Positions 7,997 to 54,562 are shown, counted from the first letter of the stretch. The stretch is DNA of 58,548 bases from a virus (IMGVR_UViG_3300046167_000506:1-58548), one strand, 5' to 3'. Notes: a model not told the origin generated them from the letters alone. Numbers and translations are program-made.

Positions 7997-8358
7997 TTTG
8001 TTCTTCCTTTTTTATCAATCGATCTTACCGCAAAGTAACCACCAACAACAGTGACACTGAGCATGTTCCATAAGTTAATCCAAGCTGAGTTGACATCTAC
8101 AATTCCGAGGCCATCAAAGAAAGTCATCAACACTAGAAAAACCACAACCACTATAAGGGTGAGCGGGCGTACATTCTTAGACAACCAAGACGTAGAGTCC
8201 ATGTCTGATTCCCAGCGTTTGCTAATCTCTTGTTCAATCTGCGCCTTTGCTGCAGCCTTTTCTTCCGGAGTCGCCACGAACTTGTCGACGATATTGCCTA
8301 CCGCGTTCACAGTTTCTGTTGCACTCCCTCCTAAAATCTTTTTAATAATATTACTCAT
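7993..8358 (-). CDS. holin (3TM/GTA-holin-like)
   Basis: RWESDMDSTSWLSKNVRPLTL followed by hydrophobic helices and GGYFAVRS.DK basic tail. Confidence 0.85.
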   Translation of the reverse strand: MSNIIKKILGGSATETVNAVGNIVDKFVATPEEKAAAKAQIEQEISKRWESDMDSTSWLSKNVRPLTLIVVVVFLVLMTFFDGLGIVDVNSAWINLWNMLSVTVVGGYFAVRSIDKKGRTK

Positions 8359-11300
8359 CTCCTAAATTTAAAAAATAATTTCTAACCATTCCATCTCTGT
8401 ACGATTTCCAAGGATACATACCCCCATCGTATGTGCCTCTGGAGTTTCTGTTGTAAATAGATTTAAGACCGCTAATCTTTTGTGCATTAGTCATGCGCTC
8501 GTAAGAATTGCTAGTCACAAATCTTTTAATCTCATTGTATCTGTATGCACCGAAAGTCTTCATCATAGCGTGAGCATCCTTTGGCATCACATCAATGTAG
8601 TTCGGTTCATTTACATTAAGGCCGTGGTAAGCAGCCTCACTCTTAGTGAGTTGAATCTTTAGTTTACCCACCGGCATAGGATATCCAGGGATCACATCAG
8701 TATCACCAGTCTCTTTGAACAAATTGTATATCTCAATCTTTACCGGGTCAGTCGAACTTATTCTAGATTTAAATACACCAAAGGTGTTGTAGAGCCAAGG
8801 GTGTTCATCTCCGTCACCAAGCATTAAAGACCCGCCGCCTTCTGGAGTTTGAGTGATTGACTCACCCCAAATGTTTACACGAGGAATGACCTGCGTACCA
8901 GTGCCTAGGTAGTTAAATGTTTTATCACGTAAGATGTTATCAAGCACACTAAAGAAGTCTGCGTTAGGATGTCTGTAGTCTGGAAGATACTCACGTCCAG
9001 AACGATAGAATGCGCTGAGCGAGTTCGGTAAGATTACAGAGAATCCAGAGCGTGAAATATTCTCGAGGTACTTGGTAAGCTGTCTCTCACTTGGATCAGC
9101 AAGGAGCTTGATGATACCGTCTATACCAGTAAGGAAAGACTGATTCATCATAGAGCCTAACACCCCAGGAACAACCCCCGTTAAATCTGCGAGGTAATCC
9201 ATAAAGTTGTTTGATCGATTAAGAACTCTTGATTCCATTTGCGCATCACGCATAGTAGACTTTAAGCCTACAGCCTGGGCCGCTATTACCGCACCACCAA
9301 GACCAAGCTTCTGATAGTTAAACCACACATCGTCTGCCTGGAGTGTAGGGTCTTCGCTTCTCAACATCCGTTTGATACCCGTGATATTAATAGAATTTGG
9401 CGGGGCCACAGAATACTTTAAGTCTCTTTCTCTTGAAACATCGGCATCTACCGGTGTAGTAATCAGCCCGCTTTCCATTAATCTTTGTGTAGCCTTATAC
9501 ATCAACCAGCTCATGAATGCTTTTGATAACAACTCAGAAAGCTCACGTTGAGACACTCTTCCTTTTGCTGCTTTCTTTATAGCAATCGTAGCAAGAGGTA
9601 TGGCAGGGTGTGCTAACTGAATACTTTGAGCTAGGATGTTAGCCGGAGTCTTAACGTATGGCATATGCATACGCACTGCAACACGGAAAGCGTTCTCCAA
9701 CACACGACTACGCTCGCCAATCAAATCAGCGGTTCTTGTTATGGCTTTGTTCAGCCAAGTTGCAAACTGGTTATCTTCCTGGAAGGTAACTTTAAGACCT
9801 GCTTGTGTAGCCCTGGTTCTGTATTCCTCATTAGGGTACTTCAAGAATCTATTCATCTCTTCACCGCTTATGCCTAATGACTTGCCTATTCTGTAGAGCT
9901 CGTAGCCCTCCATGAATTTAAAGAACGGCACATCACCAAAGGCTAGTAACCTAAACATAATGTTTGCTGGTGTCCCACCAACTGCCTCTAAGAATTTTTT
10001 AGCGCGGTAGTCGATCTGGTCTAGCTTAGTTCCATTCTTTACAGAGTCCGGGAGCTTATCACTGTTAGCCATGATTAAACCAAACGCTTTAATCGGAGCA
10101 AGCTGAAGCTGCATGTTGTACTCGAACTTATCGTTGGGAACCGTCTCCCCAATAGCACTCTTATACGCGTCTTTGATACCAACACCGAACTGCTTGCCTG
10201 CATAAATTGCAGCGGCTATAGAAGGCGGTAGTGACGCTAGGCTAGGATCAACATCTTTACCCATAGACCTGCGGATACCATTAATCATAACCTCAGCACC
10301 ATACCCAAGAGTTTTATCTAGGGCCATGATAGGAAGTGTAGAAAGGTTGGCGGTAACGTTAACCATCTGAGACACCGGAGTAAGAAGATTTCCCTGGATT
10401 AGCAATCCAATTAATTTACCCCAAGTCATAGCGTACTTGCTATTGAACTGATTCAGTCTCTTATTAGCCTCAGACACTCTACGCTTAGCATCTTCTAGCC
10501 TACCCTCGATATCTCCAATGCGGTCTAGGTCTGTGGTTTCTGCTAGCTCTTTGATCAAGGCTTGAACATCTTGCTGACCATCAAATAAATCATCAACAAT
10601 AACACCCATCTCTTCGTACTCAGTATCCGATAACTTAGTACCGTTTGAATCGTACACGCTATCCACAAGGTCTTTCATTCCTTCTGGTGTCTGGCCTTTT
10701 ATCTCACCGAACTGACGCAGCAATTGCCCCACAGCTGTACCCGTCTCAAAGAATCTTTTTAGAACAGCGCGATACTCTGCTGTACGGCCCTGCTCTTGAA
10801 GCCTCTTGAGATATTCTAGCGTAGCCAACACACGGAAGTCTCCACTTGCCAAGCTGCTCATAGCGTCGTTGACAACCGAAGGGTTCTCCCCGTCATACAA
10901 AGCAACATCTTTCATCTCAGACATTAGCTCCTCAATACTCATCTCTTCTAACCGCTCTTTGATATCGTCAATCTTCTGAGGCTCATAGAATCGAGAAGGA
11001 TCATTTCTTAACTCGGCACGAACGGAAGCTTCAAACGGAACATCCGGACGTAGATTTTGGAACATCTTACGAGCGTGTCTTCTCTCTCTCGTTTCATCTA
11101 ATCTGGCACGATCACCAGAATCGACATACCAATCTGGATTAAAGATACCACCTGCTCTTTCAAACACCTGGTCTTGAGCTTCCTCAAAGCTGATGTTACC
11201 CTTAGCATACTCTTCCCATATGCTGCGAACGTCTTGCTTGTTTTTCTTCTGACCCTTGAATCCTGCAGTAAACAATGTACGAACAGCTTCCCAGGTAATA

Positions 11301-14300
11301 GACTGCATCTCTCTTGCGAGCACTCCTTTTTCTTCTGCAGCTCTACGATATGCTTCAGCATAAGCAAAGTAAATCCCCTTAACACCTAGGTTAGAACTAC
11401 CGGCCTTAACTTTCATTGCAGCTGTGCCTCCACCAAAGTTGTGAAAAACCTCTGCGCTAGATCCTGCCAAAGGAAGTAGCTCAGCCGCCGCCACCGCATG
11501 TGTGTCAATCGTAACGTCACCCTCTGGGGAATTAGGATTGTTAATGTTGTTAAAGAACGAGCGCACCTTATGCTGGTCACCCACCTGCTTATCAATGTTT
11601 TTCATTGTACCGTTAAGCGCAATAGATGTGGCTGAAGAAATCTCAGCGTAAGAACCCCAAGCCATTGTAGACATAGAGCCGTCCGCTTTCTTAGCGTAGC
11701 CAACGCGCTCACCAATAGGGCTAACGACATGGTAGTTGCGGTCTTCAAACATCTCGTTGTACGTGCGCACAAACATCGCAGCATTCATAGCGCCATTGTC
11801 TTCAAGGCTCATAGCACCGAGGGTTTTACCCAGCATGTTTTGCAAGACGGCTTTTCTTTTTAAGTAAGACTCGTATGTCTTTCTATCAGATACCCTTTTA
11901 AATTCTGACTGGGTAAGTATTTTGTTTTTTACTTTACGTGTGTTACCAAGAGCTTTATTGTACATAGACTTAGAAAACTCTGTATCTTTCTGATTACGCA
12001 TAACGCGCATTACCGCCTCAGCTAATGCCATGTTCTGATACCAGTCTTTCTGTGGAGATAAAGCGGCAAGCATACCTGCTGCCTGCTCTTGAGTGTACCC
12101 AAATCTAGCGCCCATGTCTTGAGCGGTAAGGTTCGCGCCCACGTACCAAAGCTTAGAATATTTTCTCACGTCTTCACTAAAGGAGTCATGAAGTCTGATA
12201 AGGTTTTTAGTAGCTCGATCAACGAACACTTCGTAAATCTCATCAGCCTTTTTTAACTGAGCTTCTGTAGGGTTCTTCGTGTCTAGCGCTTTTGTTCCCT
12301 TGATATCGGACATCATTGTATGCGTGCCTAATACAAAAGCCCCGCGAGCATATACAGCTGGAGCATTCTCTCTGGTATAGTCCATAGAGATTTGTCTAGA
12401 CCCGTCGTAGTTTAGCTTAACGTCTGACTTAGCGGATGTAGCACGAGCAGGTGACACGCGGTTACCCGCTTTTATTTTACCTACCGCAGCTGCAACAGTC
12501 TCATCATCTAGTCGAGCGCGGTTGCCGTCCTCCATGTACCTCAGCTTAGACCTTAGTGCTTGAACTAGACTTGACCTTTCTCTTTCTCTGGTCTCAAAGA
12601 TTGGAGCGAATTGACTTTGATAAGATTCAGTTCCGGCAATAGCTTGAGCGCCGTCATCGAACATAGGAGCTTCAAATCTTTCGATCATATCTCTTAGCCC
12701 ATCAGCATCAATGTTCTTTGTGAGAAGCTCTGCTATAGTTCCAGCCTGGAAGTTAAGCGGTCCTCGCACTGGGGACTCGTCTCCTATAGGGTCAGCAATA
12801 TTATAAGGGCCTTCACGGAAACCTTTAAATAATTCAGTGCCATCGAGGTAAGGCAAAATGATCCCATAGTCGTACTGTCTTTCAATGTCATCAGCTGGGT
12901 TCGGGCTGAGGCTAGATTCTGGACCTTTAGGTAATTGCATCTGTTCAAGAATCTGTCCGTTCAACACATACTGTGCTTCCTCTTGATCGTACATCACATC
13001 CTGCATTGTGGTAATAGGCACTCTACCCGGGATGGCCGACTCATGAACAATCTGATCTTTATTTTCCTCTCTAAACGTAGCGGCCTCTTCACCGACAAGA
13101 CCTACTGGGTTCAGCTGGGTAAATGGTTCTCCCCAAAAGAAGTGTTGCTTCTCTGCATAGCCTGGAATAAACGCAGCTTTTGTCTCATTGGATATTTCAT
13201 CCATGAAAACTCTATGCCCAGTCTCTGCCAGACGAGAGCTCATCATCATGTTAGAGTCGTAACCGTCTATATCAAACGCTTCAAACAATGGGTATCCGTT
13301 TAATGTTTTCTCAGTACTAGAAAACCCTAAATTAGCAGCGTGAATGTCTGGATTAACAGCACCTAGCAAAGTAAACGAACCAGTCATTTGCCAAAGATTA
13401 ACAGCGTATCCAATGAGATCTTCAAAGGTCATAGCCCCACTGCTAACCTCTTCACCTACAACTGAGCCACGAACTTCCATTTCGTTCTCAATATACTTGT
13501 TGATCTCTGCGGTCTTGTATGGGTCTTGATATACTTGCATTAAGGTTAACGCAGTAGCTTGAGCGGTTGGTAAGTCTACACCTCCACGCATATTAGGAGT
13601 AGCCATCATTGAGTCATATAGCTCCTCTGCCGGGGCATTATCTATTAACTCTATAGACTTATCATATACATCAGACACAGCGTGTATAATACGTCTATAC
13701 ACATTGTTTACTGAAACATCATAACTACCACCATACTTGTCAACAACCGTTTTCGACAAATCCTTAGTGACAAAGATGACGCCGCTTCTCTGCCAGTCTG
13801 TTGCAGCATCTAAGAACATTGCCCCCAGCTTGTGATACTTAACGAGCCCAGGTAATTTACCGTCATAATCGTAAATGTATCTAGAGGAAATATATGTTTC
13901 TCTTTTGCTGCCCGTTCTTTTAACTACGACATCACCGTCCGGCGTGCCAACAACAAATGCTTTGCCGAAAGCACCCGAGCCAATCTCTTTAATCTTATTG
14001 AATTCAATACCCCCATTAAGCAGGTACTCTTCTATACGAGCACGGTTGCCACCGTCAACATCTGAACGCTCGCTGGGATCAAGCATGGCTTCACGCTGAT
14101 ACTCTTGAAGTATACCATGGAAAGCGGTCTGTACTTGCTCGTTAAAATAGTATATCGAGTCACGCTGTGGAGTGTCTACTTTAGCAGTACCCGGAGCCCC
14201 ATCTACTTTAAACAGCTCATTCTCTAAGACTCTCATTAAGCTGTAGTCTGGGTTCTTGTGCATTAGCTTAACAAGACCAAGAGTCTTTGCTACATGCTTA

Positions 14301-17300
14301 AGAGCTTCTTTGGATTTAGGTGGATTTTTGTCGGCGTCCACGTAGAAATCTTCTGCCTCAAAATCATCCATTCTGATGTCTGGGTCTGCGTCAAGAATGG
14401 CCTTGATTGTAATAGGAGGAACAACTCCAAGCCCTATACTATTGTAGTAAGCTCTAGCGTTGAAATCCTCTTTGCCTAAACTAGTGTAATAGTCTGCGTC
14501 GGCAGCAGCGTATTTGAGCATGCGGTTACCTTCTTGAGCAAACCCTCTGTACTCTTTGGCGACAAGCACATCAATTTCGCTGGTAGGGAAATTACCCGTA
14601 AGCGAATTGTTGTCATATATATCCCCCATAATATCAAAGAACTTAATAGAGGAAAATTTCTCAATCTTATTCTCGGAATCAATGGCCGCAAACCCTACGT
14701 TACCAGCATGAAGATCAGCTGTTCTCAGACCTAACTTCCCAAGGCTTTCGCTCATCGCCATTTGATTGTCTAGGTAAGCCATAGAAACGTCTATCACTTC
14801 CTCTGAAGAAAATCCCTCAACATCAAAATGGGCACGGATAGCATTGTCGATTAGAGTGAATATCATTTCATTGTTGTCGTACAACGCAGATATCTTTTCT
14901 AATGCCCCAGGGTTGTTTATATCAAGATCTTCTAGGCTTTCTTGTCTTACATCAGAATAATCTATACTACTAGGACTTGCTTCGCCCATTGCCCTAACCT
15001 TTTTCTGAAGCTGCTCTATCTTCCCAACACCTACGATCGCAAACGGATTAAACAAAGTATCGTTAATGTCAGAGGCTATGTTTTCTACTACATGCTTTCT
15101 TAAAAGCACAGAATTTAATTCTGACCTAGATACATCTGAATCTAAAACCCTTCGGTTATCTGTGTTGTAGTCTAAACCAAACAGATGATCATACAAGTAA
15201 TTGTAAAGGTTGGTCTTTAAATCTAGAGCTCGCGAGTTTAGTATAGGCTTGAACACGGCTGAGAGGTTGGTTAGTTTCAACTCTCTAAACCCAGAACCTA
15301 CAGTTCTTTGAGCATCATTGATCGGCTCAAGCCTAGCAGCTTTAAGTTCTTCATAAAGCTCTTTTACCATGGTCATATTCTCGATCATGGATTGGTGCTG
15401 AATTTTACTAATCCCTCTGCTAGGATTTGAAGCACCAGAGTAAGGGAAGTTTCTGTTTAGTAGTTCAGCAACATTCTGAAGATCTCCGATTACAGCACCG
15501 ATATTAAGTTGATAAGCAGAATTATCTCTACTAATAACATCCGTCATTGACGTTGGCAAATACTCTTTGAGCTGATATACAAAAGGAACGCCGTCTATAT
15601 CTGAAGCGATTCCTACATCGTAATAATCAGCAAGACCTGGGAGTTTACCTTTAAACTTATCGAAGTAGTTCGTGGCGATATATATCTCGTCAGCACTCTG
15701 TGCTTGCTTAAGAACAACATCTCGACCATCCTTGTCTTTGACCATGAAAGCATAACCAAAAGCACCGCTACCCAGCTTCTTCATGTCAGACAAATCCAGG
15801 GCACGATCAAAAGCATAGTCGATTAATCGAGCACGGTCATCCGCTGTAGGTTCAGACTCAGTACGCATTGCCTCTGCCGGGTTAGGGTTTGGATTTGGCT
15901 GTGCGTTTCTGACAATATCTAATATGTATATCTTATTACCAGTTCTGTATCCCTGCGTAACACGCTCGATCATATTGACCAAGTCGTTGTCACTCTTTAA
16001 GTGGAACTTACCGAGCTTAGCGCCAAGCATCTTGTTGATGACTCGTCTAGTCTTAGCCTTGGCAGTAGCATCAATCTGATTAAGGTTATCGTTAATGTCT
16101 GCAATAATACCAACGATCGCTTCTTCCTCAGCAATAGCAACAGCCTTTGCCTCCGAAGCACCACGCTCTATATAGAACGCCACATATTTACGAAAGCGCT
16201 CATTGATTTTGTTGCGAAGTGTTTCGTTGTTAACGCTTTGCAGGTCATTGAATAGTTTTGTACGAACCGCCGGCTGCAGAACCATAACGTGACGAAGGCC
16301 CTGCATGCGCAAACTCCTCACGTATAGCAGCGGTAGTTGCATTGTACATGACGTGAATTGCAGGACCGCCTTGTCTTTCGTGTTCATAGAAAGCTTCGTA
16401 CGGACCACCAGTGGCACGCTGCAAAGACTCTTTTGTTTTATGAATAATAACACGCGGGGCTTCTGTATACAAACCAACGAATGCATTGAACGCGCTGTTG
16501 AGCATAGCTGCTATACGAGGTGTAACACCGTGGCGTCTTGGGTTTACTGCGCCACCACGAACCTCTACAGAATTGTCTAATTCTTCAACAGCCTCTCGGA
16601 CTTTCTGCGCTTCAGACGCCGCTTCTTCAGCAGCACCTGGCGCTACTCTTTGGGCTGGGCGAGTAGCTGGGCCAACACTTGGTTGCGCTTGCTCTGCGGT
16701 AGGTTCATTAGTCTCTCGTACAGATCCTTCTTCTGCGAACTCGCGCTCGGCTTGTTCAAGGGCTTGTCTTGCTGCTTCATTGTTTTCAATTACTTGGTTA
16801 ACTTTTGCTCTATCTGTAGGATTCTCTTTAGCTGCTAACAGTATTTGATACGCAGCATCTAAAGCGTCTTGGCCGTAGAGCTCAACAACCTCACCGCTTT
16901 CGTTTTTCATTTGCACACGAACACCTTTATCCGCATCTGCAGAAATTGATTCGGGTGATTGTAATGGATTGAATTGGCCTTCGCCAAATATAGATATGGC
17001 ACTAACGCCAGCTTCCTCGTCAATAGTCAATTTTGTTCCTTGCGCCACAGTAGGGTTGTCCTCGCGCTGATAAACAAACGATCCATCTTCTTGCACCGCT
17101 AATGTCTCGCGCTCAGCAATGGCTGGCTCAAACATTCTAATAGTAGACGGGTCAACCTCGCTGCGCTGCCCGAGCTCTACTTTTTCTGTCTCAGTCTCAA
17201 TAACCAGGGTAGGATTCTCTGGGTTCCCTTCTAAGCGAAGAGCGCCTTGTACCTCTGTCCCATCTATAGGACGCTGAGCTATAACCTCTGTACCGTCTTC

Positions 17301-19075
17301 TAGTGTATTAATAGTTACAGCATCCACCTCAGAGCGGCCTTCAGCGATAGAACTGGCATCTGATGAAGCCGTTCCTGGTACAACCGGAGCCTGCATCTGA
17401 TCTAGGGTAGTGGTTTCTACCGCTGGAGCGACAGCCTCAACCTCAAACGTTCCGAAGCCAGTCAGCATGGTTAGAATTTCTCCCCCTAATCTAGACTTAA
17501 GTTTTGTATCTGTTGCATCCTGCATTTCTTTCTGCAGTGCAAATATCTTTTGACTCTTCTCGATCAACTCTACTTGTTGGTCTTGACTGAGTTCTTCGAA
17601 TGCTCTAATGTTTGCATTGAGCATTTCGTATTTCTTGTTTCTAAGCTCCTTAATGTCGTCACGCAAAGTCTGCTTTGCTTCCTTACCCTTTACATCCTTA
17701 AGCTGATCCTTTGTTTCTTGTATTTTTTTCTCTACTATCTGTACGTTACCGTCACCCATTAACGAAGCAGCGGTAGTAATGCTACTACCGTTTGCCTTGT
17801 TCCGATCCGCCCACTGGATATAGTTTCTCTCTGGGGTCGGCGTCATTAGCTCTGTATATCTAGAGCTAGCGCCGCGGGTTAAAGCGGCTGGGGCAGCCAT
17901 TACTGGACCACCTAATGCTTCCATAACAATATCGAGACCCGAGGTAACTTTACCATCTTCAACAAGTTGACCTGCAGTTTCACCTGCAGCACCACCTGCA
18001 GCATCTACTAATATCTCAGCGACCACTGCCTTTGTTTTACTACCTCCAGCTCTTCTGATAGCCTGGGCTGTCGTACCACCACCACCAGCAAGAAGTGCAT
18101 CTACAGAAGCAATAACGGCAGCACGAACCTTACGGTCCTCCATGGCTTGCTTTATTTTTTTTAACCCTTCTTCAGACTCAAAGGTTTGCGCAATTTCTTC
18201 CGGATCTTCAGTATCTATATGCAATTCCTCGAGAGCCATAGAAATAGCTTCTGACATTTCAAGGGCATACGAACCAGCATAAGCACCACCAACCGCAGCG
18301 CCATACGCAGTACCAGCGACATAACCAACGGGGAACTGTGACCTCGGCCAAAGGGACCGCCGGCCAGACCAGCAGATGCGCCAATAGCTTGACCCTCTGT
18401 GATACTCTCTAACACAGTCTTTTGTGCACCACCACTCGCTAAAGCACCAACGGTAGAAGAGAAGAAGTTACCCATCACTTCTGGTATCACCGTTTTCCAC
18501 CAGCCACTAGGCGAGCCAAAGTCTTCCCATCCAGGAGAACCCCGTTCGTCTCTGTATTTGTTTTGGATTTCGTTATAGTAAGCTAGTCGCTCTGCTGCGT
18601 CAACGTTGTTTTCTGGAGCTTCGTCTAAGAGATCTTCTTGCGCGCCAGTGGATAAGCCCATGGCCATAAAGTTGTTGTACCATCTAGCGGTACGCCCAAA
18701 CCAGTCGTCTCTATCAACGAGCCAATCGTCAGCAATAAGCGCGTGACGATATTCTCTATCGTTTGTCTCTTGAGGCTTGTTGTTGGGAGCGGAACTTTGA
18801 GTGAATTGCTGCGACAATAAGTCGTCCGAAAATTCGGTAGCGTCAGTCTTTAACTCGAACGATAAGTCCAACCCAGTGTCTTCCGAGCCAAAACCCATAG
18901 TGTTTGTAACCTGGGGAGGAGGTTGAGTTTGGTCTTTTTTTTTACTAAAAGATTCTAACGCAAGGGTAACATCGTTGTAAGAAAACCCTTGATCGATAGC
19001 CAATGCAAATATACGATCCTCGCTATATCCGCTAGCATAACCACTCTGCAGTAGTTGCAGTAACTCTTCGTTCAT
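8351..19075 (-). CDS. giant (~3570 aa) internal-virion polyvalent protein: zincin-like protease, two kinase-fold domains, DUF7178-like domain, helical C-terminal region
   Basis: three track ORFs (286, 670, 2711 aa) join after removing two extra bases at ~18330-18350 (GPFAEVTVPVGYVAGTAYGAAVGGAYAGSYALEMSEAI) and one at ~16300 (EEFAHAGLRHVM); lies between tail genes and the lysis cassette. Confidence 0.8.
11117..12508 (-). other. DUF7178-like / HhH-glycosylase-like cassette
   Basis: LWY, AALSPQKDWYQN, HKVRSFFNNI, VTIDTHA, YAEAYRRAA, MQSITWEAVR; family name from memory. Confidence 0.6.
12527..14032 (-). other. protein-kinase-fold cassette 2
   Basis: GSGAFG (13964-13981), VVVK, RE helix, DIHAAN (13331-13348), AFDI at the DFG position; shares GKLPGL with cassette 1. 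Confidence 0.85.
14051..15823 (-). other. protein-kinase-fold cassette 1
   Basis: Gly loop GSGAFG (15755-15772), VVLK, DE helix, catalytic DLHAGN (14699-14716), FFDI at the DFG position. Confidence 0.85.
16100..16460 (-). other. zincin-like metallopeptidase domain (EExxH variant)
   Basis: VIIH..EAFY..AIHV..TTAAIREEFAHAG (EEFAH 16305-16319) with downstream EEEA (16118-16129). Confidence 0.55.
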
Positions 19076-21284: not shown

Positions 21285-24200
21285 TTATCTCTGACTCATA
21301 GCCGAATGCATCGGACTGTCTACAAACACTGTGTTTACAGCGTATAGCTCCGACTTATCATTATGCACAGAATTCGTGAGTTCTATTTTAGCATAGTAAT
21401 CTCTAAGCGTATCACCCTCGTGTTTAGCAGATAATACGGCAACTAAAGTATAACCTTCTTCTTGGCCGGTAAGCGCTGAGCTAGTGGTTATTGTTTTAGC
21501 TGTATTTATGCTAACCACCGTTCTATTTAAGTTAGTCATAGAACTGCCGTTTACCAAATACAATGCAGATCCTATAGGGATAGGAAGTCTGTTGACCTTG
21601 TTTTCAAACGTTACGGTAGTCCCATTTACAGAATCTACAACTCCTAGGGTCACATAGTTAGCGGTGGATGCGCTAGTGTCTCTAGGTATAGCAGCGTAAT
21701 ATCCGCGCTCTCTCTCATCAAAATCTCCAGCAGCAATACTGGTTGTTTGACTAGAAGTAGATACGACAGCCGACCACACAGAATCACCTTCTAGCGATAA
21801 CGCCTGGAAAGATTTGACCATGGATGGATTGGCGTTTGCAATGATTGAAATCTTTGCGTCGTAGTTCGTGCCATAGAAATTGCCATACGCTGAGCCAGCA
21901 CCATGTTCCCACATGTATTGTTGCGTATTGCTAACGCTAACGACTTTGAAAGAGAAAAATCTATCATTGATGTGGGTATAGAAGTCTGGCTTAAAAGAAT
22001 AGAAAGACGTGAACACTCTCTTGTTATGACTATACCCAATGGTAAAACCAGTGTAGTTTCCACGGTCTTTGCTGGTCAATACATATTCTGAATTATCTGG
22101 ATCAAACCCTGCAACGATGTCCATCTCCGTCTTTCCGCTTTCAACCAAGTAAGAAGAGAATTTCTTGTCAAAGAAAGAATCCATATTAGGATCGCTGATT
22201 GGAGTAACACCGTCTCTAGAGATACGTAATACACGTTGAGCCTTTATATCAGCAAAGTACATCATTCCGAACCGCTCAACAATAGCAGCAGGATAACCGC
22301 TAGAACCAAAGTCACCGGCATAATAATTAGGTGTACTAAACACCACATTAGAAACCACCACGTTTTGATCGCTAAGAGTTTCTAGTATATTTCTGTTAAC
22401 ACCAACAATACCAACCTTGTGCTCTTGGAACACATAAAGTCTATCCGTCTGATCAACAAGTCGATCTATCTTGCCGTGACGTATCTCAAAGTCACTAAAG
22501 TTAGCGGTAGTAGGGTTGAAGCTAGAGAGGCTTAGTATATTGCTATCAGCTATGTAGGGTGCTGAGTATGTGACGGAAGAACGTCTGCGCACCTGCTTAG
22601 CGTCTTCATTGATTGCGTGTGGCCGCCCTCTAGACGTTACCTCAGAATCAAAGTAATCACTAACACTAGACGACTCTACGTAGAAGGTTTCGTATTCATA
22701 GTCACTATAATTGTCCTCGTTGTATTCAGAGTTACTAGAATCAAAAGGAGCAACAAGTACTTCGCGAGGTTTAAAGTAAACATCGCCATCCGAAAGCTGT
22801 ACCACTGGGTAACCGCCATTTGTTGTGTCGCCCACGTGAGCTCCAGAAGTAATGTCATAAACCTCACCTATTTCGTAGTAAACGGTATCGTTGTTAATTG
22901 TGTTTGGAGAAAGTATTTCTACCATAACTCTTTGACCCCAGTCATCACTTCCAGCCTTTACCTTTGTAAGATTAAAGTTGCTGTATGTTTTGGTAGCATA
23001 ATCCTCGTCTCGTATTACAATAAAATTAGAAGCACGGTTAGGTGTTACCTCTGAACTGTCAGTGATAATCTCTTTACTTAGTACATTATAAATTTGATTG
23101 TCTGGATACCTACGCACCTCAGAAGAGTCGTGGAATGAAATGATTCGTAATACATCACCTTGCTTATATGTGTATTCTAAATCAGCACCCTTGTCCTTGC
23201 TATAGGATTTGTTTTGACCTTCTAGGGGGAATAGATCTAGATATATACTGTCTTGGTCAGAAACATAATGAGCACCAGCGACTCCATATTGAAGAAAGCT
23301 TGCGTACGTTTCGTTGCCACCATACACTATCTGATACTTCTTGGCCCAGCTGGGAGGTGAGTGTTTAATCTTTAAGTCGATCTGCACTCTCCCTAAGTTT
23401 GAGCTACGTGCAGAGTCGGCATATCCTCCTACATACACGCCGTCTATCTTTTGCACAAAAGAAGATCGCCCCTTAGCATCGTAATATACGATGCCGAAGT
23501 TATGCATAGCGCTGGTTTTAAACGAAGAAAGCCCTGCCTCCAAAGAACGTTTTATGTCTTTTTGCAAAGTTACATTTGCAGAAGAAACATATCTAAAGTT
23601 AGACACGCCAAGAGAGCTGGACGCACTTGTTCTAGTATCAGCGGTCGGTCCCCCGTCAATAGTAACAACGCGTCTTGAAGTTGAACTATTGTAGTGAACT
23701 TTTGCCCTTAACACATCAAACTCAACATCTATCTTTCTCTTGTTTGCTACTCCATAAGATGAATCAGCGGTAAAGGATAGTTCTATTTCTGGGAAATCTA
23801 GCGCAGCTTCCACTTGATCTCCTACAGAATATTGTTGTGTACCCGAGCCAACAGAGGTTACGACACCCGTAGCGTTAAAGTTTACACCGTTGTTTGTGTA
23901 GTCGTAAGCAATGTTTGATGTCGCAGCAAATTGCGACCTTACTTCGTCGAGTATCTGATTACGAGTCATTACAGACCCAGCAATGATTGTAGCGCTAAGA
24001 ACCTTATCTGTACTGTAAGGAACATCTATGTAATTATTTGTATTCGAATTACCAGTGTGTTTTCCGAGACCGTAGTTTCCGTTATTAGAACCAATAACAT
24101 AATCCTCGCTAAACAAGTACGCCGGGGAGTCTCTGCTTATTCTGAAAGAACCTTGAGAAGTTCCGCGCAGTGTTACTTTAAGTCTGATAATAGCACCCTG

Positions 24201-25382
24201 GCCATAGCTATCAGCCATATTTGTTCCGTCAATAATAATAGCTGGGCTGTTTCCTAGAGAGATAGGTTGCAGTGTAGCGTCTATTGTGCCAGTATCTTCC
24301 AGCCCTTTATACGTAATAGAAGACTCTACGTTAATATCCACATTATCGTAGCCCTCTGTATAATCGCCGTACACTAATCGATTACCGGATAGGGTTTGCG
24401 CGTGTGCCTTTAGCGGCACATTATCAAAGACCTTGTCTATTTCTAAAGTAGCAACAGCCGGGAACATCCCATCATTAGTAAAGTCAAAGGTAGGATTAGC
24501 TGCAGTACCGTTATCTACTTCTTCAATTTTATAAAAGACTGTAGTCCCACCAAGACGGGCAAGGAATCGAATAGATTCAACTTCCGATCCACCGTTCTGA
24601 TAGGACAGTACAATCTTGTTATTTACTCTTTCAAACTCTGGCTCTACAACACCAGTACCATATGTATTGGGGTTTACCGCCATCTTAGAGTATGTTGATA
24701 TAGCGCTTACTTCTCCGTCTTTATAAATGTACTGATACGCAAACTGAAAGGTCTTATCGGTGACATTGTTACTTTGAACGGCAGCATCTGTGGCGTACTC
24801 AAACGTGATCGGGTCTAGCGGTGGGGTTTTACAGACGGCGAAGAACTCGTCTCTTTCTGCGTTTGTATAATACCCAGTAGCCGTGCTGTTTTTCCAGATA
24901 ACATCTCTATTGGCTAACATGCGGTCCACATTAATCTTTTTAGGCTCGCCTACTCCATCAGTAAAATACACAATTGCTTCATCGTCGCCGTTGAATACAA
25001 CACTAGATTCTACAAAAGAATCAATATCAAAACCCAACTGAGTGCCACGATATAGTATTTTATACTTATTTAAGTTTACATCATAGATATAAATATGATC
25101 TATGTTTACAGAATTACTCTCTGCCTTTGCAAAGTATACCACCTGCTGTTTCTTTGGTACAGCCACAGAGCCGATAACCTTAAGGCTTGTTGGTGTAAAG
25201 TACACCTCGTCAGAAGAGCTTTGCTCTACATGTGTATTACCTTTTATGGTTTTAACGATACCAGCATTGCCGTCATCGTCAGATGAAACCTGCACGTTCT
25301 CTGCATTCAACATCTCTATCGGCTTGAGAAGTTTCTCGTCCGAAGCTTTGTTGAGGTATTGTGGTACGTTCTTGATTATCAT
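21285..25382 (-). CDS. tail stabilization/nozzle protein (P22 gp10 / crAss muzzle-like)
   Basis: 1365 aa; LNKASDEKLL..NAENV, YFTDG..EPKKIN, FAYQYIYKDGEVSAIS, GNRLVYGDYTEGYD, FGIVYYDAKGRSS motifs. Confidence 0.8.
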   Translation of the reverse strand: MIIKNVPQYLNKASDEKLLKPIEMLNAENVQVSSDDDGNAGIVKTIKGNTHVEQSSSDEVYFTPTSLKVIGSVAVPKKQQVVYFAKAESNSVNIDHIYIYDVNLNKYKILYRGTQLGFDIDSFVESSVVFNGDDEAIVYFTDGVGEPKKINVDRMLANRDVIWKNSTATGYYTNAERDEFFAVCKTPPLDPITFEYATDAAVQSNNVTDKTFQFAYQYIYKDGEVSAISTYSKMAVNPNTYGTGVVEPEFERVNNKIVLSYQNGGSEVESIRFLARLGGTTVFYKIEEVDNGTAANPTFDFTNDGMFPAVATLEIDKVFDNVPLKAHAQTLSGNRLVYGDYTEGYDNVDINVESSITYKGLEDTGTIDATLQPISLGNSPAIIIDGTNMADSYGQGAIIRLKVTLRGTSQGSFRISRDSPAYLFSEDYVIGSNNGNYGLGKHTGNSNTNNYIDVPYSTDKVLSATIIAGSVMTRNQILDEVRSQFAATSNIAYDYTNNGVNFNATGVVTSVGSGTQQYSVGDQVEAALDFPEIELSFTADSSYGVANKRKIDVEFDVLRAKVHYNSSTSRRVVTIDGGPTADTRTSASSSLGVSNFRYVSSANVTLQKDIKRSLEAGLSSFKTSAMHNFGIVYYDAKGRSSFVQKIDGVYVGGYADSARSSNLGRVQIDLKIKHSPPSWAKKYQIVYGGNETYASFLQYGVAGAHYVSDQDSIYLDLFPLEGQNKSYSKDKGADLEYTYKQGDVLRIISFHDSSEVRRYPDNQIYNVLSKEIITDSSEVTPNRASNFIVIRDEDYATKTYSNFNLTKVKAGSDDWGQRVMVEILSPNTINNDTVYYEIGEVYDITSGAHVGDTTNGGYPVVQLSDGDVYFKPREVLVAPFDSSNSEYNEDNYSDYEYETFYVESSSVSDYFDSEVTSRGRPHAINEDAKQVRRRSSVTYSAPYIADSNILSLSSFNPTTANFSDFEIRHGKIDRLVDQTDRLYVFQEHKVGIVGVNRNILETLSDQNVVVSNVVFSTPNYYAGDFGSSGYPAAIVERFGMMYFADIKAQRVLRISRDGVTPISDPNMDSFFDKKFSSYLVESGKTEMDIVAGFDPDNSEYVLTSKDRGNYTGFTIGYSHNKRVFTSFYSFKPDFYTHINDRFFSFKVVSVSNTQQYMWEHGAGSAYGNFYGTNYDAKISIIANANPSMVKSFQALSLEGDSVWSAVVSTSSQTTSIAAGDFDERERGYYAAIPRDTSASTANYVTLGVVDSVNGTTVTFENKVNRLPIPIGSALYLVNGSSMTNLNRTVVSINTAKTITTSSALTGQEEGYTLVAVLSAKHEGDTLRDYYAKIELTNSVHNDKSELYAVNTVFVDSPMHSAMSQR

Positions 25383-33252: not shown

Positions 33253-33606
33253 TTAGAATTGATTTGCTCCGGTTAGGTCATCTATTTCTTTTTGTATTTC
33301 TTGGTATGACACTGAAAGAGAAAAGGAAAGCCCTGCTTCCCATCTGCGAATTTCCTTTCCGTTTTCATAAAGTATAACCGTGGGTAGAGACCGAATGCCT
33401 TCAGACTCCTTTACAGTGTTGTCTTTGTCTATCCAAGCTGTAAGAATCTTGACGTCTTTTAATTTTGCGACTTCAGTATAATTGTTTTTATTATTCCAAG
33501 TAGCGTTGTAATGTACCACCGCTACACCTTTTATATTTATCTGCTCAGACGAGTTTATAGTCGTCGGAACTACAAAAAGTAAAGCGGCAAGAATTAAGTT
33601 TTTCAT
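33253..33606 (-). CDS. exported thioredoxin-fold protein lacking CxxC
   Basis: signal peptide; VVHYNATWN in place of xDFxAxWC; GIRSLPTVILYENGKEIRR cis-Pro motif. Confidence 0.7.
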   Translation of the reverse strand: MKNLILAALLFVVPTTINSSEQINIKGVAVVHYNATWNNKNNYTEVAKLKDVKILTAWIDKDNTVKESEGIRSLPTVILYENGKEIRRWEAGLSFSLSVSYQEIQKEIDDLTGANQF

Positions 33607-35299: not shown

Positions 35300-36255
35300 T
35301 AGTATGCGGTTATTGTTCCGTTAGTAATTGTATTAGTGTACTTACTGTTGCTATCGTTAGCGTTATTGTTATCAAAAGTCCACTCTGTTATAAGACCGCT
35401 TGTAACTGTTTGACTACTGTCTGCTATAACACCACTGTTATATAAGGTTGTTACTTCGCTTGAGGACAATACTTTGTTGTATATCTTTATCTCATCGTAG
35501 TCCAAAGTAGCATTACCCGCACTATTGGTAAGGTGTATGTTTTCTCCAATTTTCCCCTTAGTAGCATTAATAGCTGTTCTTGTTCCGTTATTAGCATTTG
35601 ATTGAGAAGTACACTCCGTAGCGTTCCAGTACAGTTTAAATGCGTTAGCTGCGTTTGTTAGCGAAGCATCGTAGGTTACTGTAATCATACAGAACCCATC
35701 ACTATTCACATTCCCTCTTGCACTGCTTTTCCATTTTGCACTACTATTAATTCCAGTAGCAGAATTATTATCGTGTAATGGCCATTGCCTATCAAAGTTT
35801 GTGCTATTAGTCCTTATCCTCGCAATAAGTCTATTTAAGCTTTGGCTATACGTCAACATAAATCTGTTATTGCCGTTCGAGTTTGTATTACCAAAGTTCC
35901 AAAGTAATTGATTTTGCAAGCTGCCCGTGTTGCGTACCCATATACTAAAACTCAAATCTTGCGTAGTATTTATACTAAACGGTGAAGTGCTAGTAGTGCA
36001 GTTTATATAATCACCCGTACCATCGTTTTGATAGTACCTCGTGTTTGAGTATGCTGCGGATGCATTATGGTCATAGCTATACCACTCACTAATAGCGTGG
36101 GGGGCAGAGTCGTTAGGTTTATTAGTACTATTCGTATTAATAGCTTCGTACCCTCCTTCTACTGCAAGGGAAATTGAAAATTCATCTGTTGCCCCCCGAT
36201 TTAACTCGGTGTTTAATTGGGACATTTTTATTTGTCCACTGCTTTGTAATGCCAT
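35299..36255 (-). CDS. tail-associated LamG/concanavalin-A-like domain protein
   Basis: SFSIWV, MITVTYD, KLYWN, DEIKIYNKVLSSSEVTTLYNSG LamG motifs; N-terminal MALQSSG..PHAISEWYSYDH module. Confidence 0.8.
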   Translation of the reverse strand: MALQSSGQIKMSQLNTELNRGATDEFSISLAVEGGYEAINTNSTNKPNDSAPHAISEWYSYDHNASAAYSNTRYYQNDGTGDYINCTTSTSPFSINTTQDLSFSIWVRNTGSLQNQLLWNFGNTNSNGNNRFMLTYSQSLNRLIARIRTNSTNFDRQWPLHDNNSATGINSSAKWKSSARGNVNSDGFCMITVTYDASLTNAANAFKLYWNATECTSQSNANNGTRTAINATKGKIGENIHLTNSAGNATLDYDEIKIYNKVLSSSEVTTLYNSGVIADSSQTVTSGLITEWTFDNNNANDSNSKYTNTITNGTITAY

Positions 36256-39200
36256 TATGAGAATATATCTGAGAATGCGATAACATCGCCTTTAATATGT
36301 AAATCACCATCCGACTCCATACGAGCCACAAACACACCGCCTGCATAAAAGTCTATACGTCCATTGGTTGAATCAAACTGTATGTAGTTATTAGCGTCTT
36401 TACCAACGTGTGTAATACCATCACGCAAGTCTGGTTCTACACTAAATGTTGTACTTGTTAAATCAAGACCACCACCAGCTGAATAAGTTGTGTTTGTATT
36501 AGCATCGGCTACCCAACTAAAAGTACCATCACCATCTGATGCTAATACTTGACCCGCAGTACCATTGCCCGAAACATTTAATTGTAAAGCATTTACAGAA
36601 TTGTCTTTAATACTAAAAGTTAAATCATACGGGTCTGAATCTATACCTTGGTCGGTATCCGTCCAGTTTATGTTAATACCAGTACCCTCTACGAATTTCC
36701 ACTCATTAGCATTATTAATCTGTACCTCTGTACCATCACCATCCTCTACAAAGAAGCCAGTCATGTTTCCAGTAGCACCAGTGCTTATGTTTGTAATGTG
36801 ACCATTTGCATCTACAGTAATTTCGTCAATCTTAGTGCCGTTAGCCGTTGAGCCATAAGTACCACTTAGCGTAGAAGTGTCTTCGTGAGCTGTGTAAGTT
36901 TCTGTAGTTAAGTAACCAGCTTCCGTGTGGTCGCTAAAAGAATCAAAAGCATTAGAACCAAACGTAAAGCTTTGGTTAGTTGCGCCACTTACAGAGAACA
37001 CAAGAGTATTCGTGCTGTCGGTTCTAACAACACCGTCAAGGTAATAATTAGTATCTGTACCACCACTTGCATCGGTTCTCCATGCTGGAACACCGCTTGC
37101 ATTGGTTTTCCACACTTTATTAGCTTGATTAGCACCCGAGGCAACGTAGCCCGCAGCGGTAGCACTGTTGGCTATCCACGTATCAGTATCGGTGTAGTTA
37201 CCAGAATGAATGTTAGTGCTTCCTTGGTCAGTAGTCCAATCTATAATTTGGTTACCGTCCAAATTACCACTATTGTAAGACGTGTATTCTGTTACCGCAT
37301 CGTAGCCAGTTGGTTTTGAATCAAAACCATCATCATTATTGTTTGCGTAAACAGTAAAACTACCATCACTAATGTGACCAGTTGCGGTAAGTTCAGCAAA
37401 TTGACCAGCTCTAATATAAACATCTACAGCAGGGTCTCCAGCATCTACAATACCTACTTCCGTAACTACTTCTGACGAAGCCGTAGAGTGGTTATAAAAA
37501 ACTACATCATAGTTGTTGTCATTGTTTAGTTGCCCTACAATGTGACCCATAGCTGGTAGCACTTCATTACTGTATGATGTGCTTCTGCCCGCAAGGGTGA
37601 TCATAAATCGTGAAGACTGACCTCCAGTAACTCTTGCTATTCTCCAATATGTATTTGAAGTGTTAGATGAATTTTCTAAAGCTCTCCAGTTGTAAAACTT
37701 AGAGTTACCGTCTGACGATATTCCTTTGTTGAATGTTATAAGCTCTGATGCGGAATCCGCAGCATCACTTCTTAGGTATTTGCTTTGTGTTGAAGATGAT
37801 GTTAGATACCCTGCACCATTTGTAAGTTGGTTGTTGTTTGTAGGTATCGTGGTATTACCCGCCATAGCGGTTGTGGCTGTTGTACCTATAGTAAGGTTAG
37901 AAGAACCATTACCCGTTCCTGCACCAATAAGAGTTCTCATCTCAGCAGCAGTTACGCCTCCCGTTAATGCAGGAGTAGACCCGTCAGTAGTAATAGCAGG
38001 AAAATCATTACGATTTAAAGTGTCAAAGTTGGTGTATCCATCTTTAGCTGAAGCTTGTGTAACAGCCCAGCTATCCCCCCATTGTGAGGTAGCAGAAGTC
38101 GCGGCATAACCTAACCACAAGTCCTTAGCAAGAAGCTGAGTATAACTACCACCCTCACCACTTATAAAGAATGCTGTTTTTCCAGAAGTAGAATTTCTAC
38201 AGACTTCAATTGTAGGCGTATGGTAGGGGTTAGAACATTCATATCTAAAGCCTTCAAAACCACTATTAGATTCTGGATTCCAATACCCGTAGATTTTAAT
38301 CTCACCACCTTCACCCGAACTATTATAAGCGTCTTGGTAAACTAAAGTAAAACCACCCATAGAGTAGCCGTCTTGAGGCACATTAGTTTGCACAACAATA
38401 TAAGTACTTATACCGCTATCATCAGACAGCATCGCATGGTTTTTACGCCAGACATGCATGTCCCGGTCACTAGAGTCGGACTGCATTAGCTCATACTCTA
38501 AAGCATAAGTCCCCGCGTGATTATGCGCAGCTGCAGCAAACGCACTGATGTTGCTGTATGCCGCAGAACCAAATATTTCGCTAAAACGTTTTCTACGTTC
38601 CGCTCCATCATCAAGGAGTATAAGCTCATCAACAGTGGTGGTTATATCAGCAGTCATATCAGTTAACTCTGATAAGTCTAAACTTATTGTAGCGTCACCA
38701 CTTGATGTGGTTCCGTCTAATCCAGTACCTACTGTTATGCTTGATATTAATCCACTTAAATCTTGATCACCCGTGTTTGTACCAGAAGACGTACCCGTAA
38801 AACTTGACGAAGAAGCAGCGCCTAGTTCCGCTAAGGTAGGTTTATGACCTTCGTGGTATATTTCTCTAGGTGTGCTATCGTCTACTACATAATTACCTTC
38901 TGCTAATGTTGAAGTATCTAGCTCTACATTACCGCCAGATACTGGTGCTGGTTCTGTGGTAACACTTGGTTTTGATGTGTAAAACCCCGCACCACCAAAC
39001 TTAGTTAAATGAAATTTTGCTTGAGAGTATCTAGTAGTTCTTATGTATATAGTGTAGGTGTCATAATAAGTGCCTACAGCACTTTTAATAACTCTTATAC
39101 CCGCTTTATCTGTGCTGTCTTCCGTGGCGTTATGTAAAACATCTACAGTACCAGTTATTTCTATATTGTCGCCATCATTTGCCTCTCTACCTTGTATTAA

Positions 39201-44000: not shown

Positions 44001-45753
44001 AAAACCAGTTGCGTATAGGTATCCATCTTGGTCAAACTTACCTAATTCATTAGTAGACTGCTTAAAGCTAATAACAGCGTCTGCATCGCCTTGACCGTGT
44101 TGTACATCACCTCTAATAACAACCTCTCCGTCACTTTGTAAAACTAAGGAGTCACCAGTATCGGCATATTGTAAGAATGCTTTCTCTGCTCCGTTTTGAT
44201 ATAATCCGAAGTATGGGCTACCCGTAGCAGATGAATCCACACGTATAGAACTTTCTCCTTTTATTACACCCGCAACATCTAGTTTCTGTTGGGGATTAGC
44301 AACGCCAATGCCTACGTTGCCGTTATCCCTTACTCTAAGTATAGCGTTAGCGGAATATTCCGCTTGACCACCAGTTTCATCAAAACCAACCTGCCAATAA
44401 TTATGATTTCCATTATAAGGAACACCATCAAACCATTCACCATCGGCTCCAGAATCTGTATAGAAAGTACCTTTTGCACGTCCTTCGTACCCTTGCATTA
44501 TTATTTGGGTAGCAATAGCTGGTGCGCCATCGGTGTTAGTAGCGGTTAAATATAAAGATGTAGTTGTTTGAGAAGAGCTACCTATTCTAGCAGCGTTATG
44601 ATTAACGTCTAACCCGTAGCTAGGGCTAGATGTCCCGATGCCTACGTTACCACCATTTAACCAGCTATTGCTTGCGGAATCTAAACGAACAACTTCTACA
44701 TTGTTATTAGTGCCATCGGAACTCATTAACGAGAACAGACCCTTATCTAAATCATCACCGGAGTTTCCTCTAGAAATAATACGAGATATAGTGTAGTCAT
44801 TTGACCTAATTAAAAATCTTTCTTCATTATCTGACTGTATTGACACAGACCCCGCAAAACCAACGTTGCCAGCTGAGGTCAATGTCATTAAAACATTGTT
44901 ATTAGGATCTTTAAATAGTAAATCATTACCACCATAAACCCCTAATTTAAATTTAACGGTAGTAGGGCTGCCTATAACAAAACCGTCTCCGTTCGTTGAT
45001 GCTTTTATAGTGCCCCCTACTTCAAGTGCAACATCGGGGTCTGTTATACCTATACCTAAGTTCCCGCCAGCAGTAAGACGCATTCGCTCTGTATTACCAT
45101 GAAGCCATCTAGTGTAAGCGCTAGGGCTGTCTCCATCCATTTTAAAAGCAAATCTACCGTGGTCACCTCCGGTTTCGTCTTGTATACTTTCGAAGAATGC
45201 CTCTGTATCATTAACGTATATTTTTAATGATTCGGAAGTAGAACTGTTTCTTGCAATATATAAAGGATTATTACCCCCATCAGTATCAAACATTGCACTA
45301 CCTCCATCAACAAGTAAGCCTGCTTGAAAAGCAGCAGCGCCAGCTGTTGAAATCTCTAAAACATTTGTAGTGCCTAAAGCTGTAGAGGCTGCAATAACAA
45401 ACTTATCAGAGTCTGAATTGTCAATACCCATCGTATATGACTGGGTACTAATCTTGAACTCCATACTAGCATCACCAGTATTACCGTCTTCAATAAGAAG
45501 TTTAGGGTCTGTGGTCTGATAGGCATAAACGTGAAGTCTTGCTTCGGGTAGCTACATCTGAACTAAAAGTGCCAATGCGAACATCTTTGTTAATGTTTAC
45601 GCCCCCTGTTCCAGCAGTTGACCATAAACTTGATGCAGTATTGTAGTCTGTCCCGTCTACGGCTGCAACAATATTACCGTTTGAATCAAGTTTTAGTATT
45701 GAGCCAGCGGTGACGTTGCTTAGGTTTAATCCGCTTAGAAACTTTATTGCCAT
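41037..45753 (-). CDS. long tail fibre protein (~1570 aa; one apparent extra base near 45550)
   Basis: track ORFs 45502-45753 and 41037-45464 join (…DVAPEARLHVYAYQTTDPKLLIEDGNTGDASMEF…); GNVGIG repeats, ALPKAGGTMTG. Confidence 0.8.
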
Positions 45754-54272: not shown

Positions 54273-54562
54273 TTTGAAAACTTCTCTGCGAACCCGCCGG
54301 AGAAATCCGACTGTTCTGTTATACCTCCCGTTTGCCTTAATTCTTTTACCATTTGCTCCAACCGCTGCCTTTCCTGCAGCAGCTCTCGAGCGTCGGTAGC
54401 TGTAATCTTTATTGCTTGTAGCTCAGCTTTGCGCTGCGAACCACCAGCATCCGGATCAACGGGCTTGCGTATCTCGTCAATCATGTTGTTAATGGCCACC
54501 TCCATGGATGACATTAGCCTTTCAGCTGCGTCAAGCGTTGTGAACTTCTTCGATTTCGACAT
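54269..54562 (-). CDS. conserved helical protein, terminase small subunit candidate
   Basis: two long helices and C-terminal GGFAEKFSK; upstream of terL in the same operon; function inferred from position only. Confidence 0.45.
   Translation of the reverse strand: MSKSKKFTTLDAAERLMSSMEVAINNMIDEIRKPVDPDAGGSQRKAELQAIKITATDARELLQERQRLEQMVKELRQTGGITEQSDFSGGFAEKFSK

Follow-up and report, generated by a model that had tools for sequence, protein, structure and literature searches.

Recurring RAR peptides at the module borders of a giant phage protein are candidate processing sites

The DNA analysed here is a virus record of 58,548 bases (IMGVR_UViG_3300046167_000506:1-58548; hereafter the window), rated 97% complete. 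It is a podophage-type genome, whose terminase and portal match PHROG families, and it carries on its minus strand a giant gene that ends the structural block and adjoins the holin. Because the portal resembles those of Cellulophaga phi38:1 (Pervagoviridae) and Flavobacterium Elemovirus (∼ 30% identity), the host is probably a flavobacterium. A short peptide built on Arg-Ala-Arg (RAR) recurs four times in the giant protein, and these four copies are the subject of this report. The positional counterparts of the giant gene in Elemovirus (3694 amino acids, aa) and phi38:1 (1691 aa) are annotated as structural; they show no BLAST similarity to the giant protein, no RAR and no repeated peptide.

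The four copies, denoted motifs 1 to 4 (Table 1), lie in P0001, a single open frame of 2711 codons, and share the consensus x-[DGS]-G-[DN]-R-A-R-[LI]-[DE]-[DE]. All were found in the translated minus-strand frame exactly as first annotated, with the codons given there, and they are the only RAR tripeptides of P0001. Successive motifs are 597, 508 and 470 codons apart (estimated previously as about 590, 500 and 465), and the two GSGAFG loops, at residues 239 and 836, each follow the end of a motif by exactly 17 residues, the approximate distance given before. As had been proposed in the initial annotation, the motif was also counted across the proteome and compared with expectation. No copy of [DN]RAR[LIVM] occurs elsewhere in the window (six frames, open stretches of > 100 codons). 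The expectation per protein is 0.013 copies. Among 20,000 residue shuffles, 19,726 had zero copies, 273 had one, 1 had two and none had three or more; a post-hoc test that admitted any exact tripeptide with conservative flanks gave four copies in 3 of 5,000 shuffles. In an unbiased 7-mer self-comparison of P0001, P0002 and P0007 the RAR motif was the sole cluster with at least three copies, the background in shuffled P0002 being 9 of 60 for clusters of at least three copies and 1 of 60 for a four-copy cluster. Chance does not explain the four motifs.

Judged by homology, the four peptides lie where one module of the giant phage protein gives way to the next. Similarity of the N-terminal region to the relative P0008 stops ∼ 30 residues before motif 1. 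The two modules that follow are paralogues (∼ 21% identical), and each begins with a motif. When the DUF7178 module is aligned by BLAST with 15 distantly related polyvalent proteins, the alignments begin 19–97 residues past motif 3, and 13 of the 15 stop at a conserved PxW, at most six residues before motif 4; those of P0016 and P0017 fall short of it by ∼ 15 residues, and that of P0008 runs across it. The core of the C-terminal module, which we call the carrier, begins ∼ 10 residues past motif 4, where relatives have low-complexity linkers; in most of the distant DUF7178 proteins such a linker comes next after the end of DUF7178 homology. Those distant relatives also bear ART-PolyVal and LPD38. 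In the window protein DUF7178 is the only polyvalent-type domain recognized by Pfam. Two kinase-like modules and DUF7178, which are unrelated effector-type domains, are thus held in one chain of ∼ 3,540 aa.

Motifs 1 to 4 had been said to bracket two kinases and a DUF7178-like domain. The bracketing stands, with borders defined by homology; the kinase label is less secure, having motifs and weak matches behind it and no family hit. Both paralogues share an invariant Gly-loop, VxK, E, DxHxxNxGF and FDxxG. The kinase hallmarks are in the right order, with G35, G37, G40, K55, E62, D246, H248, N251 and D271 invariant in seven module sequences. Pfam gave no match to the kinase-like modules, a phmmer search of 1.84 billion representatives returned the protein's own cluster only, and a profile search of the PDB matched nothing beyond the Gly-loop (E 0.0035–0.05). 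The AlphaFold2 (AF2) model of module 2, built from seven sequences, has a mean predicted local distance difference test score (pLDDT) of 40 and was unusable for fold search. Neighbours of module 2 in the ESM-Atlas are phage kinase-like clusters, which we treat as a lead only. Scans of IMG/VR and of metagenome contigs with the kinase-module alignment found the same two orthologue clades (see below) and no remoter relatives. Kinase membership is therefore weakly supported beyond the ordered motifs.

The motif is kept at each position that any found orthologue covers, in both clades (∼ 80% and ∼ 62% identical), as the initial annotation would lead one to expect of a conserved domain junction. Five of five full-length orthologue proteins have four copies and the truncated P0006 has three of three. 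At the level of loci, four copies are present in L002 and L005–L009 and in L096, L097, L099 and L100; the incomplete coverage of L003, L004 and L098 leaves three of three, and that of L010 one of one. The flanks on the N-terminal side vary, [DN]RAR does not. Of the window's 12 R-A-R codons, 8 are different in L007, synonymously in every case; there are no non-synonymous changes. Because strict amino-acid invariance is found alongside saturated synonymous change, the alignments indicate that the motif is held by purifying selection on the peptide, and the earlier view that the constraint lies on the peptide and not on the DNA is upheld. L002 and L007 share 75% identity over the N-terminal region; their two kinase-like modules are 39% and 43.5% identical, DUF7178 77% and the C-terminal module 76%; motif 2 is thus a conserved island within the most variable part of the protein (modules 39–44% identical). 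In P0008, the next relative (end regions 27–33% identical), unrelated sequence replaces the kinase-like modules, and RAR is missing from it.

The kinase-like modules diverge fastest in the protein, both between the clades (39–44% identity versus 75–77%) and within the closer clade (61–75% versus 85–96%). L002 and L006 have 100% identical DNA apart from patches, close to where these modules start, in which identity falls to as little as 83%, a pattern that suggests diversifying selection or gene conversion.

Table 1. Features of the giant gene, in window coordinates.
Feature	Position	Strand	Remarks
Probable giant virion (polyvalent/ejection-type) protein, whole gene	8351..19075	minus	∼ 3,540 codons; tblastn of orthologue P0002
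Open reading frame pieces of the giant gene in the record	18215..19075, 16245..18257, 8351..16486	minus	The last piece is P0001
First frame break	18330..18351	minus	Two single-base insertions, near 18350 and 18332, in short C/T runs; DNA alignment with L002 and L006
Second frame break	16297..16301	minus	One extra base in GGGCC, within the conserved IREEFAHAG codons; DNA alignment with L002, L006 and L007
EExxH domain, variant zincin-like	15920..16562	minus	Approximate, projected from P0002 residues 836–1048; IREEFAHAG at 16299-16325
Motif 1, DDRARL	15824-15841	minus	P0001 residue 216; after a Pro/Asn-rich variable linker, opens kinase-like module 1
Kinase-like module 1	14051..15823	minus	Gly-loop GSGAFG at 15755-15772
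Motif 2, GNRARI	14033-14050	minus	P0001 residue 813
Kinase-like module 2	12527..14032	minus	Gly-loop at 13964-13981
Motif 3, GNRARL	12509-12526	minus	P0001 residue 1321
DUF7178 module	11129..12466	minus	Pfam PF23802, E 1.4e-22; bounds as shared with other polyvalent proteins
Motif 4, GDRARL	11099-11116	minus	P0001 residue 1791; position matches [ED]RA[SA][ILVM] of distant relatives
C-terminal carrier module	8354..11098	minus	∼ 900 aa, all-alpha; homologues, AF2, BFVD

The frame in which the motifs were first noticed is real, but it is merely part of a gene of ∼ 3,540 codons that three insertions split. A tblastn search with P0002 (3543 aa) traced the gene through 19075-18347, 18347-16299 and 16300-8354 (frames -3, -2 and -3) at 82–90% identity, and the orthologues are single open reading frames (ORFs) of 3324–3565 aa; the orthologous loci examined each hold one ORF, of 3324–3543 codons. 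Relative to all orthologues there are three 1-base insertions, net +3, so that the frame is restored, and the three gene pieces are otherwise intact. Since all three insertions fall in short homopolymer runs, they are probably sequencing or assembly errors.

A scan of IMG/VR with the carrier alignment yielded 78 loci, the carrier-bearing ORFs being mostly of 2,000–3,350 codons. Where motif 4 would fall, 10–15 residues ahead of the carrier's basic start, [ED]RA[SAN][ILVMT] (for example ERASI, DRASI, ERAAI) is found in 11 of the 44 proteins that do not belong to the window's clade, and 9 further have near variants (KRASV, SRASS, SRASG, ARASA, GRASA, RRSSG, GRAAL). The upstream parts of 38 proteins were then searched with [ED]RA[SAR][ILVM], a pattern drawn from the junction copies only; the window's clade and proteins with < 300 upstream residues were left out and six near-duplicates (L048, L046, P0040, L026, P0029, P0027) were dropped. 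Against 2.43 matches expected, 15 were observed. A relaxed pattern, chosen post hoc, gave 21 versus 3.92 expected upstream and 2 versus 2.2 inside the carrier. Four junction-peptide copies, 200–480 residues apart, are present in each of L020, L023 and L029, and in L023, L029 and L043 the last effector domain, PF25735, lies between two copies, as DUF7178 does here. P0028 has GDDRARLIE in a non-kinase setting. In an anchored test (junction 7-mer recurring twice upstream, 100 shuffles, 46 proteins), p ≤ 0.01 was reached by 6 of the 46: the window's two clades, L028 and L043 (GRAS...), L031 (RRSSGxL[RK]) and L038 (FSVDE). In DUF7178 proteins without the carrier (P0009–P0024) the junction peptide was not clearly enriched (8 observed versus 3.39 expected). 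Because relatives carry a variant both at the place of motif 4 and upstream, RAR is, on this comparison, one local variant of a peptide, [ED]R[AS][SAR][ILVM], found repeatedly at junctions in the family's other lineages.

Some giant proteins have different short repeats of their own. The L038 repeat, [YR]FSVDE, is at residues 2024, 2204 and 2458 and the L031 repeat, RRSSGxL[RK], at 1342, 1923 and 2199, the last copy of each lying at the junction before the carrier. P0021 has four copies of [DS]QVGK (882, 1220, 1391, 1515) and P0009 three of QxSxGGR; both are leads only, clusters of at least three copies appearing in 2–9 of 60 shuffles. P0028 and P0029 are near-identical outside ∼ 480–640, where a module of ∼ 145 residues is inserted just after IKDRASEQP, in an acidic low-complexity linker.

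The carrier has 28 homologues among proteins of 506–1612 residues. It is C-terminal in all of them, and the domains ahead of it include RadC, DUF3293 and L5-gp82-like. The AF2 model (22 sequences) is all-alpha, with a pLDDT of 69.9 and a predicted template modelling score (pTM) of 0.65; its first 39 residues, motif 4 included, have a pLDDT < 50. Foldseek found nothing in the PDB at E ≤ 0.001, and VIA-align gave helical-hairpin matches only (Z ≤ 8.6). In BFVD there were 56 matches at E ≤ 0.001 (top E 3e-18), which are C-terminal portions of phage proteins bearing the names MuF C-terminal, PolyVal ADP-ribosyltransferase, LPD3 and 'Internal virion protein'. The entries with the last name come from Synechococcus and Pelagibacter podophages (E 4e-13 to 3e-09, template modelling (TM) scores 0.33–0.43). 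According to a 2026 preprint, phi24B gp47, an LPD protein of 2811 aa, is found in virions and is proposed to be an ejection protein (bioRxiv 10.64898/2026.04.10.717836). Because of the BFVD matches and the presence of phi24B gp47 in virions, we read the window protein as a putative ejection-type carrier with effector modules hung in front. The marine phage probably carries the giant protein in its particle and injects it.

The N-terminal region of ∼ 1,075 residues closes, just ahead of motif 1, with a domain that has an EExxH signature. IREEF[AG]HAG is still conserved in P0008 (27% identical). Fifteen sequences of the family, when aligned, show the arrangement G..IH...EExxH...EE, with the G..IH strand before the signature and the EE ∼ 70 residues after it, and the same EExxH arrangement is found at residues 900–1250 in at least 12 other lineages. 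When the 15-sequence profile was compared by hhalign with the HExxH regions of six DUF7178 polyvalent proteins, the result was 88.5% (E 2.8e-6), EExxH falling on HExxH and EE on EE; these templates themselves have no Pfam peptidase match. Homology of the EExxH domain to the HExxH-bearing domains is a lead from this alignment. A search for homologues of the domain among proteins of 432–2000 aa gave no match. Among its ESM-Atlas neighbours LPD23 is present in 18% of one cluster. A predicted complex of the domain (residues 836–1048) with a 45-residue stretch around motif 4 scored 0.56, 0.00 and 0.00, a prediction made without controls that speaks neither way. In L028 (residue 1259, GRARL) and L043 (residue 1241, GRSRL) a similar peptide lies inside the domain, ∼ 20 residues past the EExxH helix; the junction peptide of these two lineages is GRAS-like.

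We tentatively favour, at somewhat less than an even chance, a model in which the motif copies are polyprotein-like processing sites that would release the kinase-like and DUF7178 modules, possibly through cleavage by the embedded EExxH domain. The giant protein would be packed in the head and ejected into the probable flavobacterial host; the chain would then be cut at the junction peptides, freeing the kinase-like and DUF7178 effector modules from the carrier. The likeliest cutter would be the EExxH zincin-like domain just upstream of the first site, with a host protease as fallback. Processing is favoured because an embedded peptidase-like domain, exposed junctions and lineage-specific sites together make up a polyprotein arrangement. 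Small residues after Arg, followed by a hydrophobic residue, are plausible as a cleavage site, and motif 4 is predicted to be exposed, since it lies in the stretch modelled at pLDDT < 50. Autoproteolytic release of the domains of polyvalent proteins was predicted by Iyer et al. (2017; PMC5512222).

A number of observations weigh against this proposal. The EExxH domain may be inactive because Glu replaces the first zinc-binding His of zincins. HExxH is absent from P0002–P0008, and neither HExxH nor HxxEH occurs in any long frame of the window; the zincin domain invoked by the initial annotation reads EExxH, and its alignment to HExxH domains is a lead. With shallow profiles, hhalign scored the EExxH domain against HExxH domains at 7.5% and 0.2%. 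Pfam detected no peptidase in the EExxH region at E up to 10, and neither PHROGs nor Pfam recognized a protease family in the window ORFs. No other virion protein of the phage contains the motif, unlike prohead protease sites, and it is also absent from the first 1,075 residues, an N-terminal region of several parts. The low-confidence AF2 models put the motif at a helix start, which would also fit a structural cap. The internal virion proteins of the podovirus phiRIO-1 showed no processing (PMC4819975). Finally, the 15 upstream matches of the family-wide search are not independent, amounting to ∼ 9 distinct positions shared by related proteins, and 40 of the 46 proteins in the anchored test did not reach p ≤ 0.01 (L019, p = 0.02).

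The main rival reading does without cleavage. The motif could be a docking or capping element, each module opening with the same short helix N-cap and the protein acting as one chain; the peptide would stabilize the start of the module or bind one partner, such as the carrier or capsid interior during packaging, a post-ejection chaperone or a host hub. We regard this as rather unlikely. The AF2 helices start, at low confidence, at motifs 2, 3 and 4, and D/N followed by R-A-R-L-[DE]-[DE] would be a plausible N-cap and amphipathic start. A chain that stays whole would also agree with the unprocessed phiRIO-1 proteins and with the failure to recognize a protease in the window, and the phage encodes a GroES-like protein. 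However, the modules that follow the motif (kinase-like, DUF7178, carrier) are unrelated in fold, so that a shared structural role inside each of them is unlikely, and relatives hold low-complexity linkers at the same place. Moreover, the motif changes wholesale between lineages (RAR, ERAS, RRSSG, FSVDE), which fits a co-evolving pair of enzyme and site better than a host hub.

Alternatively, the peptide might persist mainly because modules swapped by recombination each bring a copy, with no biochemical role of its own. The initial annotation had likewise suggested that the motifs mark cassette-exchange points, and what survives of that suggestion is a variable block that runs roughly from motif 1 to motif 3; its breakpoints are not sharp, identity at the motifs changing gradually. 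By sequence comparison, modules do move or diversify near the motifs, as seen from the kinase block, which is far more divergent than its neighbours, from the mosaic patches that set otherwise identical L002 and L006 DNA apart, from the insertion in P0028/P0029 just after a DRAS peptide and from the different effector domains that precede the same carrier. But the codons differ between copies and between orthologues, which leaves no DNA homology to recombine on and makes a pure recombination seam less likely, and amino acids that stay invariant while synonymous change is saturated speak for selection acting on the peptide. As a full explanation we consider an exchange boundary improbable.

The consensus ERAS[ILM] resembles the sites of basophilic kinases. 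Hence the copies might be pseudosubstrate or substrate-like sites (R-x-[S/R]-hydrophobic) that regulate the protein's own kinase-like modules, the R that replaces S in the window variant being what a pseudosubstrate would have. This seems very improbable: Ser is freely exchanged for Ala in relatives (ERAAL, ERAAI), the L023, L029 and L043 proteins with ERAS-type copies gave no Pfam kinase match, and motifs also border non-kinase modules. A leftover of internal duplication, or chance, is scarcely credible, since the shuffle tests disfavour chance and, even if the paralogy of modules 1 and 2 gives motifs 1 and 2 a shared origin, R-A-R is kept between paralogues only ∼ 21% identical and motifs 3 and 4 precede unrelated modules.

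Returning to processing, we speculate on a wider form of the proposal. In a wide group of marine podophages a polyprotein-like code would operate, in which an embedded EExxH zincin variant cuts [ED]-R-[AS]-[SAR]-[ILM] after ejection, so that effectors (kinase-like, DUF7178, L5-gp82-like and others) are detached from a carrier of the internal-virion-protein type. Enzyme and site would be re-coded together in each lineage (RAR, ERAS, GRAS, RRSSG and perhaps FSVDE), and the sites would double as seams for effector exchange. In this full extent the scheme is unlikely to hold.

Polyvalent proteins have been described as giant polypeptides of phages and conjugative elements that join unrelated effector domains and are predicted to be delivered with the DNA (PMC5512222). 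The article text of Iyer et al. (2017) reports a distinctive kinase group in Bacteroidetes phages and an embedded zincin-like peptidase predicted to release the domains (PMC5512222). The window protein resembles the polyvalent proteins of that text in being a giant single chain of unrelated effector domains, kinase-like ones included. It differs in that the text names no cleavage or junction motif (PMC5512222), whereas here a recurring junction peptide is defined, and in having EExxH in the peptidase-like domain and an internal-virion-protein-like carrier at its C-terminus. The analogy drawn by Iyer et al. with the polyproteins that eukaryotic RNA viruses encode applies to the arrangement, namely one chain, an embedded protease and short lineage-specific border sites; no domains are shared, and cleavage is here a prediction.

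Prohead proteases, such as T4 gp21, offer another comparison. The resemblance lies in short motifs, sometimes several per protein, which in T4-like and giant phages (SPN3US gp245, PMC10052503) direct the cleavage of proteins packaged into the head and then ejected. There the sites end in Glu and occur in many head proteins, from which a dedicated protease removes N-terminal propeptides. Here the motif is Arg/Ala-based and confined to one protein, in which it lies between modules, and no prohead protease was recognized by Pfam or PHROGs in the scanned window ORFs, a search that an unrecognized family would escape. A possible likeness to the internal virion proteins of T7-like and other podoviruses, and to phi24B gp47, comes from the carrier, which matches predicted structures of that name, and from the position of the gene at the end of the structural block. 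There is no sequence-family match, the TM-scores are 0.3–0.5, and the available texts on those proteins describe no processing sites.

In the literature outside supplements we found no printed junction motif for these proteins (the supplementary tables of Iyer et al. and of the SPN3US work may hold relevant alignments), nothing on DUF7178 and nothing that joins a polyvalent protein with an internal virion protein. The protein class and the idea of self-processing are already in print. The literature found does not describe a defined peptide recurring at the junctions or its variants across the family, the EExxH signature of the domain, or a connection to a carrier resembling internal virion proteins.

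Elsewhere in the window, all on the minus strand, a protein of 1365 aa (21285-25382) matches the crassvirus muzzle families PF25731 and PF25729 and may connect these podophages structurally with crass-like phages. Between the portal and capsid genes lie ORFs of 1591 aa (36255-41030) and 1475 aa (41037-45464). Neither has a Pfam family; PHROGs gave two weak matches for the former and none for the latter, and the Elemovirus relatives have no counterpart at that place. The GroES-like co-chaperonin gene (54531-55127; PHROG 13932, E 2e-34) is ∼ 2 kb upstream of the terminase gene. In phi38:1 and Elemovirus a GroES-like gene is directly beside the terminase gene, and Elemovirus also encodes GroEL. 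A small ORF in the structural block (33253-33606) has a weak thioredoxin match (E 6.6e-4, below the Pfam cut-off).

Giant proteins of the polyvalent and ejection types occur widely in phages, and they raise the question of how chains of > 3,000 residues are packed, ejected and converted into enzymes. A defined junction peptide provides residues to mutate, peptide ends to seek in proteomes and, in the EExxH domain, a candidate enzyme. Should the peptides prove to be cut, such proteins could be divided by rule into their effector modules, and a new peptidase specificity would be gained; if they stay uncut, they would be a shared handle on every module, with a partner worth finding.

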